NCBI GenBank assembly: GCA_001464065.1
Contig: LNDN01000011.1
Coordinates: 2,231-66,230 of the forward strand
Direction: 5' to 3'
DNA length: 64,000 nt
Source of the DNA: Acidobacteria bacterium Ga0077522
Lineage (GTDB): Bacteria; Acidobacteriota; Vicinamibacteria; Vicinamibacterales; Vicinamibacteraceae
Below the pieces are notes generated by a model, which made no database searches, was not told the DNA's origin, and worked only from the letters and a program-made list of their open reading frames with translations. Within the stretch, counting starts at the first letter, position 1, and every line of letters starts with the position of its first letter. Positions 6,736 to 33,277 of the stretch are shown in pieces. The position numbers were made by a program, and so were the translations under genes.

Positions 6736-6765
6736 GGCCTTCGGCCTTCGGCCCTGGGCCTTGGG
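6736..6765. repeat. Tandem heptamer array (GGCCTTN) x4
   Basis: ggccttc ggccttc ggccctg ggccttg, 13 nt after the rpmD stop; an inverted GAAGGCC copy lies at 6772-6778. Confidence 0.9.
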
Positions 6766-6816
6766 ACATGCGAAGGCCGACGGCCGCGTGACGACGGTCG
6801 ACAGGAAAGAGTCATC

Positions 6817-7257
6817 ATGGATTTGAGCGATCTCAAGCCAGCCAAGGGTGCGACCCACGCCAGCAAGCGCGTGGGCCGTGGCCAGGGGTCGGGCAATGGC
6901 AAGACGGCCGGGCGAGGCCACAAGGGCGCCAAGTCGCGCTCGGGCTTCAAGCGCAAGCGCGGGTTCGAGGGCGGCCAGATGCCGCTGCACCGACGCCTGC
7001 CCAAGCGCGGCTTCACGAACATCTTCCGCAGCGAGTACGCGGTGATCAACCTCGACCAGCTCGAAGCGCTGTTCGAGGCCAACACCGACGTGACGCCGGA
7101 GGTCCTGCATGGTCAGGGGCTGGCGCAGGGCACCCAGAAGATCAAGGTGCTCGGCCGCGGCGAACTGACCAAGACGCTCAACGTCAAGGCCCACAAGTTC
7201 AGCGGGGCGGCCGCGCAGAAGATTCAGGCGGCCGGCGGCACCGTCGAGAGCCTGTAG
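6817..7257 (+). CDS. rplO: 50S ribosomal protein L15
   Basis: 146 aa; [20 protein letters not shown] motif. Confidence 0.97.
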
Positions 7258-7261
7258 GGCT

Positions 7262-7289
7262 CGCCGACGCCGCACGTCGCACGTCGAAG
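7262..7289. repeat. Tandem heptamer array (GYCGMAS) x4
   Basis: cgccgac gccgcac gtcgcac gtcgaag, 5 nt after the rplO stop; followed by GC hairpins at 7295-7315 and 7321-7341. Confidence 0.8.
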
Positions 7290-7371
7290 GTAGCGGGCGC
7301 CCCGCCGGGGCGCCCACGTCGGCCGGCTCGCAAGGCCGGCCCTACCCTCCGAAACATCGAGACCACGACCG

Positions 7372-30047: not shown

Positions 30048-30049
30048 CG

Positions 30050-31756
30050 ATGGCGATGCCGCAGATGGTGCCCGTCCCACCTGGTACCCCGGCGCCCTGG
30101 CCACCGCGGCCAGGGGGGCCGGCCCTCGTCTGGCTGGCCGGGCTTCGCGCCCTCGTGGCGGTGGCGCTGCTGGCGCCCCTGGCGGCCTTCACCGCCGGGC
30201 AGGGCCAACTCTCGCAGGCTGCCTGGCTGGCGCTGTTGCCGCTGGCGCCCCTCGCCAACAGTGCGCTCGGGCTGTTGCTCGGGCCCCGGCTGTCGCCGCG
30301 GGGCCTCACCCTGCAGTTCCTCGCCGATGCCCTCGTGGTGCTGGCGGTGGTCTGGAGCACGGGGGGCCTGCTGAGCGCCTACACGCCCCTGATGCTCCTG
30401 CCCGTGCTGGCCGCCAGCGTGCTCGGTGGCCGGCGTGCCGGCATGCGTGCGGCCGGCGTGCTCGGCACCGGGGTCGTGGTGCTGTCGGCCGTGCAGTACG
30501 GCTGGCTGCCCGCACCGACGGCGCTCCGTGATCCGCTGCAGGTCGCGCTGTTGCCGCCGCTCCCACTGACGGCCTATACGCTGGCCGCCAACGTCGGCGG
30601 CTTCGTGGCCACGGCCCTGCTGGTGGGGCATCTGTCCGAGTCGCTCAGTCGCACCGGCGCCGACCTGGCGCGAGCGACCACGAGCCTTGCCGATCTCACC
30701 ACGCTGAGCCAGCGCGTCATCGACAGCATGACCGGCGGGCTGATCGTCACCGACGCGCACGGTGGCGTCGTCCTCTTCAACAGGACCGCCGAGACCATCA
30801 CCGGCCGACGCGCCGAGGATGTCCTCGGCGAGCCTGTCGACCGCGTCCTGCCGCTGCCGGCGGGCGAGTCCGACGGTGGGATCCCGGTTCGTCTCGAGTG
30901 CTCGTTCACGCGCGTCGATGGCAGCGTGATCGAACTCGGCGCCACGGTGGCCCCGCTGCTCGGCGGCGGGGGGCAGCGTGCGGGGCAGCTGGTCACCTTC
31001 CAGGACCTCACGCTGATCAAGCAGCGCGAGGCGGAGCGGCAGCGGCAGGAGCGTCTTGCCGCCGTCGGCGAGATGGCGGCCGGCATCGCGCACGAGATCC
31101 GCAATCCGCTGGCGTCGATGAGCGGGTCCATCCAGTTGCTGCGTCACGAGCTGACGCTGCGCGACGACCAGGCGACGCTGCTGGACATCGTCATGCGCGA
31201 GTCGCAGCGCCTCAACGACATCATCAAGAACTTCCTGTCGTATGCCGGACCGCAGCGCGTCAGCCGCTCGCGGGTGGACGTGGCCTGCCTCGTCACCGAG
31301 GTCGGGGCGTTGCTGCAGCAGCAGGCGCAGGGGCCCGGGGTCGTCACCATTCGCGTCGATGCGCCCGCACCGGTCTTCCACGACGTGGACGAGGCGCAGC
31401 TGCGCCAGGTGCTGTGGAACCTCGCCACCAACGGCATCAAGGCGATGCCGGAGGGGGGCGTGCTCCATCTCGGCGTGGTGGCCGTGCCGGACTCGGGCGG
31501 TGCGTCGCTGCAGGTGTCGGTGCGTGACGAAGGGGTCGGCATGGCGCCGGCCGACATCGAGCGCATGTTCCAGCCGTTCCAGAGCGGCTTCCGGCAGGGC
31601 AGCGGTCTCGGCCTGGCGATCGTCCGCCGCATCGTCACCGATCACGGCGGTCGCGTCAGTGTGCGGTCGACACCCGGGGCAGGCACCGAAGTGACGGTGT
31701 CGCTGCCGGCGCCGGTCGCGCGTCCCCAGATCGTGCCCATCCTCAGGAGTGCCTGA
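30050..31756 (+). CDS. pilS: Membrane sensor histidine kinase, PilS-type
   Basis: 568 aa; multi-TM N-terminus, PAS region, H-box AHEIRNPLAS, HATPase N/G boxes; immediately upstream of pilR. Confidence 0.85.
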   Translation: MAMPQMVPVPPGTPAPWPPRPGGPALVWLAGLRALVAVALLAPLAAFTAGQGQLSQAAWLALLPLAPLANSALGLLLGPRLSPRGLTLQFLADALVVLAVVWSTGGLLSAYTPLMLLPVLAASVLGGRRAGMRAAGVLGTGVVVLSAVQYGWLPAPTALRDPLQVALLPPLPLTAYTLAANVGGFVATALLVGHLSESLSRTGADLARATTSLADLTTLSQRVIDSMTGGLIVTDAHGGVVLFNRTAETITGRRAEDVLGEPVDRVLPLPAGESDGGIPVRLECSFTRVDGSVIELGATVAPLLGGGGQRAGQLVTFQDLTLIKQREAERQRQERLAAVGEMAAGIAHEIRNPLASMSGSIQLLRHELTLRDDQATLLDIVMRESQRLNDIIKNFLSYAGPQRVSRSRVDVACLVTEVGALLQQQAQGPGVVTIRVDAPAPVFHDVDEAQLRQVLWNLATNGIKAMPEGGVLHLGVVAVPDSGGASLQVSVRDEGVGMAPADIERMFQPFQSGFRQGSGLGLAIVRRIVTDHGGRVSVRSTPGAGTEVTVSLPAPVARPQIVPILRSA

Positions 31757-31759
31757 GAC

Positions 31760-33220
31760 ATGGCCGCCCCGGCACCGCAGGTCCTGACGCCCACACCCTC
31801 CCGCATCCTCGTCGTCGACGACGAGCGGTCGATGCGCGAGTTCCTCGCGATCATGCTCACGCACGAGGGGCACGAGGTGGTGGCGGCGGCCAACGGGGCG
31901 CAGGCCATCGCCGCGCTGCGCCAGCGACCGTTCGACCTGCTGATCTCCGACATCCGCATGCCCGACTGCAGCGGCATCGATGTCCTGCGCGAGGCCAAGG
32001 GATTGCAGCCGGACCTGCCGGGCATCCTGATGACGGCCTTCTCCTCGACGCAGACCGCGATCGAGGCGCTGCGATCCGGCGCGCTCGACTACGTCAGCAA
32101 GCCCTTCGACATCGACGAGATGAAGCGCGTGATCGCCCAGGCGCTGGAGCGTCGCCACCTGCGCGACCTCGCGCCGGCGCCAGGCGACGTCGCCACCGGG
32201 GCCGACGACGGGCGCCCGCACGCGTGCGACTCGATGATCGGGCGCGGCCCGGCCATGCAGCGCGTCTTCGCCCTCATCGAGGCCATTGCCGGGACGTCGA
32301 GCACCGTGCTGGTGACCGGTGAGTCCGGCACGGGCAAGGAGATGGCGGCGCGGGCGATTCACCGGCTGTCGCAGCGTGCCGAGCGGCCATTCGTGGCCAT
32401 GAATTGCGGCGCGCTCACCGAGACCCTGCTGGAGTCCGAGCTGTTCGGGCACGAGAAGGGCGCCTTCACGGGCGCCATGCACACGACGCGGGGCCTCATC
32501 GAGCAGGCCGACAAGGGGACGATCTTCCTCGACGAACTCGGCGAGATGAGTCCGCTGATGCAGGTCAAGCTGCTGCGGGTGCTGCAGGAGCGACGCTTCC
32601 GTCGCGTCGGCGGCCACGAGGAACTCGCCGCCGACATCCGCATCATCGCCGCCACCAACCGCGATCTGTCGAAGATGGTGGCCGAGGGCACGTTCCGCGA
32701 GGATCTGTACTATCGCGTCAACGTGATCCCGGTGGCGCTGCCGGCCCTGCGCGAACGTCGCGAGGACATCCCCGTGCTCGCGCGCCATTTCGTGCAGCGC
32801 TTCGCGCGGGAGATGCGCCGGCCCGGCGCCGAACTGTCGGCCGATGCGCTCGAGGCCCTGCTGCGCCACGCGTGGCCCGGCAACATCCGCGAACTCGAGA
32901 ACGTCATCGAGCGCGCCGTGGCCCTCGAACCCAGTGCGTCGATCACGCTGGCCAGCCTGCCGGACCACATCCAGCACGTCGCGCCAGCCAGTGCGCCCCC
33001 GATGACCCTGGTGGCTGGCCCCACTCCCACCGGCTCGTCGTCGACCGCGACGGCGTTCCCGGCCCAGGGGTTCGATCTGGAACGCCACGTCCAGGACATC
33101 GAACGCGAGTACCTCGCCGAGGCGCTGCGCCGCGCCGACGGCGTCAAGATGCGCGCCGCCGAACTGCTCGGCATGAGCTTCCGCAGCTTCCGGTACTACG
33201 CCAAGAAGTACAACCTCTAG
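31760..33220 (+). CDS. pilR: Sigma-54-dependent response regulator PilR
   Basis: 486 aa; receiver domain (DLLISDIRMP), AAA+ GESGTGKE and ESELFGHEKGAFTGA (GAFTGA) motifs, C-terminal HTH. Confidence 0.9.
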   Translation: MAAPAPQVLTPTPSRILVVDDERSMREFLAIMLTHEGHEVVAAANGAQAIAALRQRPFDLLISDIRMPDCSGIDVLREAKGLQPDLPGILMTAFSSTQTAIEALRSGALDYVSKPFDIDEMKRVIAQALERRHLRDLAPAPGDVATGADDGRPHACDSMIGRGPAMQRVFALIEAIAGTSSTVLVTGESGTGKEMAARAIHRLSQRAERPFVAMNCGALTETLLESELFGHEKGAFTGAMHTTRGLIEQADKGTIFLDELGEMSPLMQVKLLRVLQERRFRRVGGHEELAADIRIIAATNRDLSKMVAEGTFREDLYYRVNVIPVALPALRERREDIPVLARHFVQRFAREMRRPGAELSADALEALLRHAWPGNIRELENVIERAVALEPSASITLASLPDHIQHVAPASAPPMTLVAGPTPTGSSSTATAFPAQGFDLERHVQDIEREYLAEALRRADGVKMRAAELLGMSFRSFRYYAKKYNL

Positions 33221-33223
33221 GGG

Positions 33224-33277
33224 CGGGAACCGGGAACCGGGAACCGGGAGTCGGCAACCGAGTCGGGAGTCGGGAGT
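33224..33277. repeat. Tandem heptamer array (CGGGARY), about 8 units
   Basis: cgggaac x3, cgggagt, cggcaac, cgagt, cgggagt x2, starting 4 nt after the pilR stop. Confidence 0.9.

Follow-up and report, generated by a model that had tools for sequence, protein, structure and literature searches.

Why should the spacers of a bacterial chromosome carry short tandem repeats of one preferred period, and why should these repeats begin where a gene has just ended? The question was raised by a stretch of 64,000 nt (hereafter the window) from Acidobacteria bacterium Ga0077522, a member of the Vicinamibacterales (assembly GCA_001464065.1, contig LNDN01000011.1, positions 2,231 to 66,230 of the forward strand). 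A first-pass annotation, made from the letters of the window, had listed at least eleven arrays of heptanucleotide units in its non-coding DNA and had placed each of them directly behind a stop codon. The arrays were followed through the window, through two sets of related contigs and through a group of near-identical strains. Heptamer arrays are a real, statistically robust and phylum-wide feature of the Acidobacteriota.

Arrays were detected in the window with Tandem Repeats Finder and with a scan for self-matches at a lag of 7 nt (match +1, mismatch -2; thresholds of 12 or 10), and the excess at period 7 was judged against other periods and against shuffled sequences. The identities of the window genes were taken from Pfam assignments on near-identical contigs. 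At a threshold of 12 the lag scan returned seven arrays of period 7, all within the 11% of the window that was mapped as non-coding; periods of 4, 5, 8, 10, 11 and 13 gave zero arrays, and periods of 6, 9, 12 and 15 were present inside genes only. Period 7 was the sole non-triplet period present in the window. With the threshold lowered to 10, 12 arrays were counted in the 34 spacers, compared with 0.04 on average, and never more than 1, in dinucleotide-preserving shuffles, which bears out the claim that the arrays are non-coding and non-random. Essentially all of the arrays listed previously were recovered by Tandem Repeats Finder and the lag scan, and the recurrence of units between loci also held: three unit families (GAGCC/GGCTC, AAGGCC/GGCCTT and CGGGAGT/CGGGAAC) each occur in two or three spacers of the window. 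All of the window arrays lie between 6.7 and 33.5 kb. In the first half of the window eight of 21 spacers hold them; the half from 34 to 64 kb has 13 spacers of at least 20 nt, and even a low threshold revealed no period-7 array in these.

Related contigs are denoted by L-numbers, L101-L180 being those of the ribosomal cluster. Sample 1 consisted of the window and 80 acidobacterial pilT loci (1.45 Mb, 13% non-coding). Sample 2, which is independent of sample 1, consisted of 58 contigs of at least 3 kb around rpoA (0.45 Mb; RpoA 72-76% identical). Among 185,579 species genomes, the closest relatives of the window PilT were found in metagenome-assembled genomes (MAGs) of Acidobacteriota, mainly Vicinamibacterales, at an identity of 80% or less. 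The order of the pil genes had suggested a myxobacterial origin, which was rejected in view of these relatives. Sample 1 yielded 89 non-coding and 11 coding arrays of period 7, and every other non-harmonic period gave at most nine non-coding arrays. In sample 2 there were 85 non-coding arrays of period 7 and one coding array, followed by 27 arrays of period 8 and at most six of any remaining period; about a quarter of the spacers of at least 60 nt (58 of 249) carried an array. The octamer arrays (L101-L180; 27 non-coding, none coding) share the layout of the heptamers, 11 of 24 lying within 5 nt of a stop codon and 18 of 24 having a reverse-complement partner, so that 7 nt is a strong mode and not an absolute rule.

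The position of the arrays relative to genes is far from random. In sample 1, 36 of 96 arrays lie within 5 nt of a stop codon, compared with 9.6 ± 2.6 (maximum 16) when arrays were placed at random within the same spacers in 200 trials; in sample 2 the figures are 26 of 77 observed and 6.4 ± 2.5 expected. About a third of the arrays therefore start no more than 5 nt past a stop codon, approximately four times the expectation, and the enrichment that the first-pass annotation had anticipated was found in both samples. Closeness to start codons is weak. The density of arrays per kilobase is 0.95 in co-directional spacers and 0.89 in convergent spacers versus 0.19 in divergent spacers (Fisher p = 0.02), and this roughly fivefold rarity between divergent genes ties the arrays to the 3' ends of genes and not to non-coding DNA as such. 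The stop-proximal arrays of the window start 1-13 nt past the stop codons of rpmD, rplO, rpoA, the gene at 14081, the permease gene at 18259 (minus strand), pilB, pilT and pilR. For these the earlier placement stands; it fails for the arrays at 13196-13223 and 28792-28822, which are distal and lie near the next start codon. The stop codon is often itself part of the first array unit. Units that abut a stop share the stop triplet of their own gene in 11 cases compared with 5.5 expected (p = 0.006), which reflects the frequent continuation of arrays into the stop codon itself. Two further candidates were rejected. The type of stop codon shows no bias as an insertion target (TAG 19, TGA 14 and TAA 13 next to arrays versus 376, 439 and 316 overall), and a function of the arrays as backup stop codons is not borne out by the share of stop-abutting units that contain stop triplets, which is 26% in the sense and 38% in the antisense direction.

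Many arrays are arranged as inverted pairs. A partner was defined as the reverse complement of two tandem units within 150 nt, with at most two mismatches, and reversed or complemented units served as controls. Such a partner was present for 43 of 89 arrays in sample 1 (controls 4 and 6) and for 48 of 78 arrays in sample 2 (controls 1 and 4). A further direct copy was found for only 11 of the 89 arrays of sample 1, which makes inverted partners about four times as common (43 versus 11). With half or more of the arrays paired in this way, the spacer is predicted to fold as one long stem-loop. The spacer between rpoA and rplQ illustrates this best. Its length ranges from 1 to 215 nt in 64 related contigs and is 19 nt or less in 26 of them. 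Of 25 distinct rpoA-rplQ spacers of at least 60 nt, 17 carry arrays of period 7 or period 8, 16 of these as inverted pairs, and 21 fold at z < -2 (median -3.4). The units of the inverted pairs are lineage-specific (GGCTCAG, GGGATTG, GGTTTTA, GGTTCGT, CAGCTGT, GGGCTAA and others). The predicted structure extends from a median of 2 nt past the stop codon to 9 nt before the start codon, so that the part left unpaired has approximately the length of the entire spacer of lineages that lack the insert. Scanning of the whole window with Rfam 15 at the gathering score gave no matches to a known RNA family.

Hairpins that stand directly behind stop codons, and that are common between convergent genes, might be factor-independent (I-shaped) terminators or attenuators built from repeat stems. 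The spacer at 14837-14902 could be read in this way. Its array fills the 66 nt between the convergent genes 14081-14836 (plus strand) and 14903-15949 (minus strand), the RNA of the minus strand has a folding energy of -41 kcal/mol (z = -2.3), and the array is found only in the window and in L092, whereas the sister strains L091, L093, L094 and L096 have two ordinary GC-rich hairpins in its place. Many arrays, however, are internal to operons of ribosomal-protein or pil genes, in which a stop to transcription would do harm, and some arrays are unstructured. Five or more T residues in the next 10 nt follow only seven of 60 distal arms, no terminator-like sites were found at the arrays in a scan of the window from 6 to 19 kb, and a canonical intrinsic terminator is present after rplQ at 13859-13897 (GGGAGCCCCGCC...GGCGAGGGCTCCC followed by TTTTCGTTTG). 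Termination of the canonical kind, one of the roles suggested by the first-pass annotation, is thus unlikely, and we rate the reading of the repeat stems as terminators or attenuators in general as quite unlikely.

The units themselves form a restricted vocabulary within each genome. Pairs of arrays from different spacers agree with at most one mismatch in 23% of cases within one contig versus 3.5-4.4% between contigs. Across the phylum (consensus units of L001-L180) a CTGA/TCAG core is threefold enriched (z = 8.4), and units resembling GGGGATT, the Nostoc type, number 14 where 2.5 would be expected; L111, L113 and L174 are examples of contigs that have them. Most units are devoid of a GGG tract, and this diversity of units that are mostly not G-rich means that quadruplex formation is not the general principle. 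The arrays could conceivably be landing pads for a sequence-specific protein that binds DNA or single-stranded RNA and whose specificity co-evolves with the preferred unit of the genome, such as an OB-fold or cold-shock protein with one heptamer per monomer; binding of CspB to heptamers has been discussed (PMC4679880). Such a protein would be consistent with the recurrence of genome-specific families at unlinked spacers and with the non-random units described above. It fits poorly with the several unrelated families found in one genome (three in the window), with units that drift freely between strains and with the lack of strand bias relative to transcription, and no candidate protein was put forward from the data. 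We consider this reading very unlikely.

The mutability of the arrays was assessed among near-identical strains. Proteins identical to the window PilT and RpoA were found on 10 and 10 metagenome or MAG contigs, respectively (e.g. GCA_022842525.1), and these contigs belong to the same species-level population as the window. In the strains with identical PilT or RpoA, 47.7% of the array columns are gapped and 14% are substituted; outside the arrays the corresponding figures for the spacers are 10.3 and 6.5%, which makes the arrays their hypervariable portion. Their length changes include steps of whole units (-7 nt between pilT and pilC, +21 nt between pilR and pilA) together with larger changes not divisible by 7 (+36 nt after pilB, -16 and -111 nt downstream of the permease gene). 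Between pilR and pilA there are also changes larger than 21 nt. Copy-number polymorphism of the slippage type, for which the first-pass annotation had proposed a check, is therefore present. Its argument against random microsatellites holds in so far as placement and units are non-random, and does not hold in so far as the arrays behave as hypermutable microsatellites.

Array expansion has also been seen in the laboratory. In mutation-accumulation lines of Acidobacterium capsulatum, indels accounted for more than 26% of mutations, with an enrichment in non-coding DNA (PMC8717266). One line had acquired a tandem duplication of a 27-nt block, consisting of the consecutive ACTG-type units CCAACTG, AGGACTG, ACAACTG and ACACTG, at position 3,003,784 of NC_012483, where the end of a gene is 5 nt away (PMC8717266 Table S2), on which the authors make no comment (PMC8717266). 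This duplication is an expansion of an array. A mode of 7-8 nt among the indels of Table S4 of the same work was considered and set aside; the sizes were left unused because the allele strings in that table are cut to 8-9 letters, contradicting both the stated totals (90 bp over 15 insertions and 143 bp over 16 deletions) and the breseq entry of 27 nt for a single event (PMC8717266).

Hypermutability is what would be expected of contingency (phase-variation) tracts or of G-quadruplex switches that regulate neighbouring genes, and the array at 33224-33279, upstream of pilA, has at least four GGG tracts, as do the quadruplex-forming repeats of Xanthomonas (PMC4692102). The arrays are nevertheless found downstream of housekeeping genes, outside reading frames and promoter elements, and most of their units have no G-tract. 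Beyond the variable arrays of the pilR-pilA spacer, downstream of 33290-33449, lies an invariant region with the sigma-54 promoter of pilA (TGGCAC-N5-TTGC, 33625-33639), and this promoter and approximately 170 nt upstream of it do not vary among the strains. The contingency role proposed earlier, like that of a quadruplex switch, is the least probable of the readings considered here.

Non-autonomous mobile elements that insert at gene ends, comparable to REP doublets forming hairpins (REPINs; REP, repetitive extragenic palindromic sequence) or to MITEs (miniature inverted-repeat transposable elements), are suggested by the layout as inverted pairs, by the unit families within genomes and by one strain difference: L087 is without the entire 111-nt array block downstream of the permease gene, the stop codon standing directly against the unique flank. 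Against this, the arrays lack a constant element sequence, termini and a target-site duplication, length changes of a single 7-nt unit are among those seen and no particular stop codon is preferred as a target. Furthermore, part of the array at 18156-18190 is complementary to its own unique flank (GGCATTCGCC at 18127-18136), which suggests a local origin. A mobile element is highly improbable.

With modest confidence, we lean towards a composite account in which the arrays are slippage-driven heptanucleotide microsatellites that are tolerated, or bring a slight benefit, as stem-loops of a REP-like kind behind cistrons and between them. Replication slippage with a preference for 7 nt, and less often for 8 nt, would continually create and remodel arrays, and selection together with deletion bias would spare them only where they are harmless, that is in the first free nucleotides behind a stop codon. 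Inside operons it would mainly be arrays that fold away that survive. A folded spacer would hold the stop codon close to the next ribosome-binding site and would leave no long unstructured RNA for Rho or RNases. Where arrays act, they may do so as stem-loops similar to REPs or bacterial interspersed mosaic elements (BIMEs), shielding the upstream mRNA from 3' exonucleases and insulating or tuning the neighbouring cistrons.

In an alternative account the arrays are a purely neutral or selfish by-product: a mutational bias towards tandem duplications of 7-8 nt would generate them everywhere, selection would clear them from genes, promoters and ribosome-binding sites, deletion bias would take away the remaining free DNA, and functionless remnants would be left abutting stop codons. 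This alternative is possible, if doubtful. It draws on the hypervariability and the presence/absence polymorphism among near-identical strains, on the many lineages without an insert between rpoA and rplQ (26 of 64 spacers of 19 nt or less), on the lack of mirrored variants between arms and of strand bias, and on the expansion of an array in unselected mutation-accumulation lines (PMC8717266). It leaves unexplained the approximately fourfold excess of inverted over direct second arrays (43 versus 11), the recurrence of unit families across the spacers of one genome and the array that takes the place of two hairpins at a convergent gene end, and the fivefold depletion in divergent spacers would require that all of that DNA be constrained.

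A number of observations weigh against the composite account as well. It does not account for the choice of 7 nt as the unit size, and slippage alone does not predict the sharing of units within a genome. Variants of the units are not significantly mirrored between the two arms of a pair (mean z 0.26, p = 0.34, n = 28); a mirrored order would have pointed to selection for pairing or to a one-step inverted duplication, and no covariation-type sign that pairing is selected thus emerged. The arrays show no bias in sense-strand composition relative to transcription, a bias that would fit Rho-utilisation (rut) sites or a single-strand binder. Several arrays of the window have no partner and lie in spacers less structured than their shuffles: the array at 28792-28822 is not complementary to that at 28739-28773, and the pilT-pilC spacer containing both has z = +1.7; in the pilR-pilA spacer the tract at 33290-33449 is unstructured (z = +2.5, every one of 200 shuffles being more structured) and varies greatly in length among strains. 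Individual arrays are dispensable, as seen from the block missing in L087, from the four strains with hairpins in place of an array and from the 26 of 64 short rpoA-rplQ spacers. A role at the RNA level, in the 3' untranslated region or between cistrons, is plausible and is something that we infer. The gene maps came from a crude codon-usage gene caller written for this analysis, the phylum was sampled in two genomic neighbourhoods only and metagenome assemblies may misreport the copy number of repeats.

The sharing of units within genomes, the excess of inverted over direct partners, the non-random vocabulary and the replacement of hairpins by an array keep a further reading open. The Acidobacteriota, and perhaps also other lineages rich in heptamers (Xanthomonas, cyanobacteria and Planctomycetes), might possess a dedicated and hitherto unrecognised mechanism, either an enzyme that writes or homogenises the repeats or an RNA- or DNA-binding factor that reads them, which would install genome-specific hairpins at the ends of cistrons as a 'punctuation' of operon mRNAs, in the manner of REPs and the REP-associated tyrosine transposases (RAYTs); the arrays would in that case be more than passive microsatellites. 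We regard such a mechanism as unlikely. The arrays of the window are listed in Table 1.

Table 1. Repeat arrays of the window and their positions, with the units, copy numbers and surroundings of each.
Position	Strand	Unit and type	Copies	Location and detection
6736-6765	+	rpmD-rplO proximal arm, GGCCTTC type	~4	12 nt past rpmD stop (6721-6723)
6772-6785	+	rpmD-rplO distal arm, GAAGGCC and GACGGCC, reverse complement of proximal units		
7262-7289	+	ACGTCGC array	2.9	behind rplO stop; Tandem Repeats Finder, score 33
13153-13180	+	rpoA-rplQ proximal arm, GCTCACG-type units, one unit of 9 nt		13153-13177 detected
13197-13223	+	rpoA-rplQ distal arm, TGAGCCN, reverse complement of proximal arm	4	
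14840-14901	.	GCCCTGA/GAGCC-type array	~9	convergent-gene spacer
18156-18190	-	CGCGAATGC (9-mer) plus CGAATGC (7-mer) array	3.2 (9-mer)	period-7 array detected at 18175-18190
18191-18254	-	AAGGCCC array (sense GGGCCTT)	~8	detected from 18191 or 18199 to 18254
27253-27282	+	CGTCGGR/CGGGAGT-type array, degenerate, 75% match	~4	weak; 1-2 nt past pilB stop
28739-28773	+	GTCTCAA/GGCTCAA array	4-5	from first base past pilT stop; 28739-28764 detected
28792-28822	+	AAGGCCC/ACGGCCC array	4	ends 1 nt before pilC start used (28824); 28795-28822 detected
33224-33279	+	CGGGAAC then GGGAGTC, G-tract units	4-5, then 3	3 nt past pilR stop
33290-33449	+	C-rich, G-poor tract, period ~7, CCTCCGT/TCCTCNN	~18-20 (Tandem Repeats Finder 17.7)	absent from first-pass annotation

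The rpmD-rplO spacer folds at -48.4 kcal/mol (z = -2.7). Degenerate units continue past its distal arm to approximately 6802, the start of rplO being at 6817, and the units of the proximal arm vary between strains partly in step with those of the partner arm. In L093 (2472-2524) an extra GC-rich hairpin of 26 nt (GGCGCGTTCGCTGAACGCGCC) is inserted between the rpmD stop codon, which it follows directly, and the heptamer array; non-repeat hairpins, too, are therefore accepted at the site immediately after a stop. The array behind rplO was unchanged in six strains, has a separate GC-rich hairpin downstream of it and folds at z = -1.1. It had been listed earlier and was detected again, weakly; because it is marginal and invariant among strains, it is a doubtful member of the group. 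In the rpoA-rplQ spacer (z = -1.9) the stem begins at 13144, 4 nt past the rpoA stop codon, and the distal array ends 15 nt ahead of the ATG of rplQ (13239).

Two arrays adjoin each other downstream of the permease gene. The one at 18156-18190, previously given as a heptamer array at 18157-18189, consists mainly of the 9-mer, and the heptamer description applies to a short tail; its copy number is different in L085 and the block is missing in L087. Its neighbour at 18191-18254 starts 4 nt past the stop codon of the MacB/FtsX-type permease gene (18259-18261, minus strand) and is shorter in L085. The array downstream of pilB has 36 extra nucleotides in L088, which include four perfect CGGGAGT units. 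That behind pilT has one unit fewer in L083, L087, L089 and L090 and is remodelled in L088, and an array of GTCTCAA/GTCTGAA units is found at the same position in L001, the PilT of which is 80% identical. A single substitution in L088 is the sole difference among 11 strains in the array ahead of pilC.

The array at 33224-33279, which was detected in two parts (33224-33260 and 33260-33279), is the only one in the window with G-quadruplex potential. It is longer by 21 nt (three CGGCAAC units) in L081 and differs by several units in L083, L086 and L088. The 160-nt tract that follows it at 33290-33449 looks like a rut site.

Several further features were noted. Directly after the rplQ terminator (approximately 13899-13967), the window, L091, L092, L095 and L099 carry a block of about 69 nt that L093, L094 and L096 lack. 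The rpsD-rpoA spacer contains, at 12029-12075, a 20-nt direct repeat (2.3 copies) that begins at the stop codon and has a small palindrome (GCCGAACGCGTTCGGC) in each copy; a hairpin with a T-run at 12119-12137, approximately 20 nt before rpoA, is a possible attenuator. The spacer between secY and adk is about 3 nt long in the window (8758-8760), where adk probably starts at 8761 and not at 9070 as the gene caller had it, and 35 nt long in L091 (4532-4566). In L084 (1-10000) an identical pilT is preceded by unrelated genes and not by pilB, an opposite-strand gene of the thioredoxin family ending 1 nt before pilT; this context reflects either a rearrangement or a chimeric assembly.

Short tandemly repeated repetitive sequences (STRRs) have been known since 1990 and an overall heptamer excess since 2007, and heptanucleotide arrays are among the oldest unexplained classes of bacterial repeat. 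Heptamer arrays now prove to pervade the Acidobacteriota, a major and little-studied soil phylum. The diversity of their units argues against G-quadruplexes as a general explanation, and attention is drawn instead to the features that are common to different lineages, namely abutment of stop codons, inverted pairing over whole spacers and depletion between divergent genes. The rpoA-rplQ spacer, reduced to 1 nt in certain lineages and forming a repeat hairpin of 200 nt elsewhere, offers a natural experiment on whether such hairpins influence operon expression. In practical terms the arrays could serve as strain-level variable-number tandem-repeat (VNTR) markers for uncultured Acidobacteriota, and they are a likely source of assembly breaks and mis-set gene starts.

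Among known systems, the REP, BIME and REPIN sequences of Enterobacteria and Pseudomonas resemble the acidobacterial arrays in being extragenic, in often lying just behind stop codons, in forming mRNA hairpins from inverted pairs, in having genome-specific families and in being individually dispensable. REPs have a stabilising effect on the mRNA upstream of them, and those lying very near a stop codon influence translation termination. They are, however, fixed imperfect palindromes of 20-40 nt that are spread by RAYT transposases, whereas the acidobacterial arrays are tandem heptamers of variable copy number, and no common conserved element sequence of this kind was found among the arrays of the contigs compared; nor are the arrays known to be associated with a transposase. 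STRRs are found in heterocystous cyanobacteria and have the units CCCCAGT, TTGGTCA and CAACAGT; these units were not enriched among the acidobacterial array units. To our knowledge, neither the abutment of stop codons nor hairpin pairing is part of the description of STRRs. The likeness to the STRRs of Calothrix and Nostoc (cited in PMC4692102) lies in tandem 7-nt units, a non-coding location and few families per genome; the acidobacterial host differs in phylum and in GC content.

Heptanucleotide repeats are the commonest class of long simple sequence repeats (SSRs) in many prokaryotes, including Burkholderia and Actinobacteria, as the work of Mrazek et al. (2007) on the excess of such repeats in prokaryotic intergenic DNA is summarised in PMC4679880, and the acidobacterial over-representation resembles this excess in being specific to period 7. 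Huang and Mrazek (2014) found their 7n3 class to be prominent in several phyla and scored the Acidobacteria at the whole-genome level as 'normal' (0.00; PMC4060949 Table 2), so that the phylum had not been flagged before; our search of the literature for heptamer repeats in Acidobacteria or myxobacteria found no description. The TAACTGA repeats of marine Beggiatoaceae, some Cyanobacteria and Bacteroidetes (MacGregor, 2015; PMC4679880) are likewise intergenic heptamers of patchy spread with a CTGA core. They consist of essentially one unit in one orientation, with one inverted case, and lie mostly directly upstream of start codons (PMC4679880), unlike the acidobacterial arrays, which abut stop codons, use many units and often form inverted pairs.

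The closest system is that of the GGGAATC heptamers of Xanthomonas, a genus of 65% GC, which are found between aligned open reading frames and rarely between divergent ones (Rehm et al., 2015; PMC4692102). They lie within 50 bp of a stop codon or overlap it, are transcribed, differ from species to species and include 70-75 inverted pairs (PMC4692102). The premise of the first-pass annotation, that an equivalent in a high-GC lineage had not been described, is therefore wrong, since these repeats have the same layout. Like the GGGAATC repeats of Xanthomonas and the GGGGAYT repeats of Nostoc, the acidobacterial arrays are intergenic, consist of tandem 7-nt units, prefer co-directional spacers, are rare in divergent ones and lie close to stop codons; as in Xanthomonas, they are often inverted pairs and differ in length and sequence between close relatives. 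Even single units are alike, as in the CGGGAAC array of the window (33224-33249) and the GGGGATT-like units of L111, L113 and L174. The differences are that the Xanthomonas units have a G-tract of at least three, whereas most acidobacterial units are not G-rich and only 33224-33279 qualifies in the window; that several unrelated unit families are present in one acidobacterial genome, in a host from the Acidobacteriota; and that in many acidobacterial spacers the paired arrays fill everything between the stop codon and the ribosome-binding site. The acidobacterial arrays belong to the class of repeats already described in Xanthomonas and cyanobacteria, with GGGAATC of Xanthomonas as their nearest counterpart.

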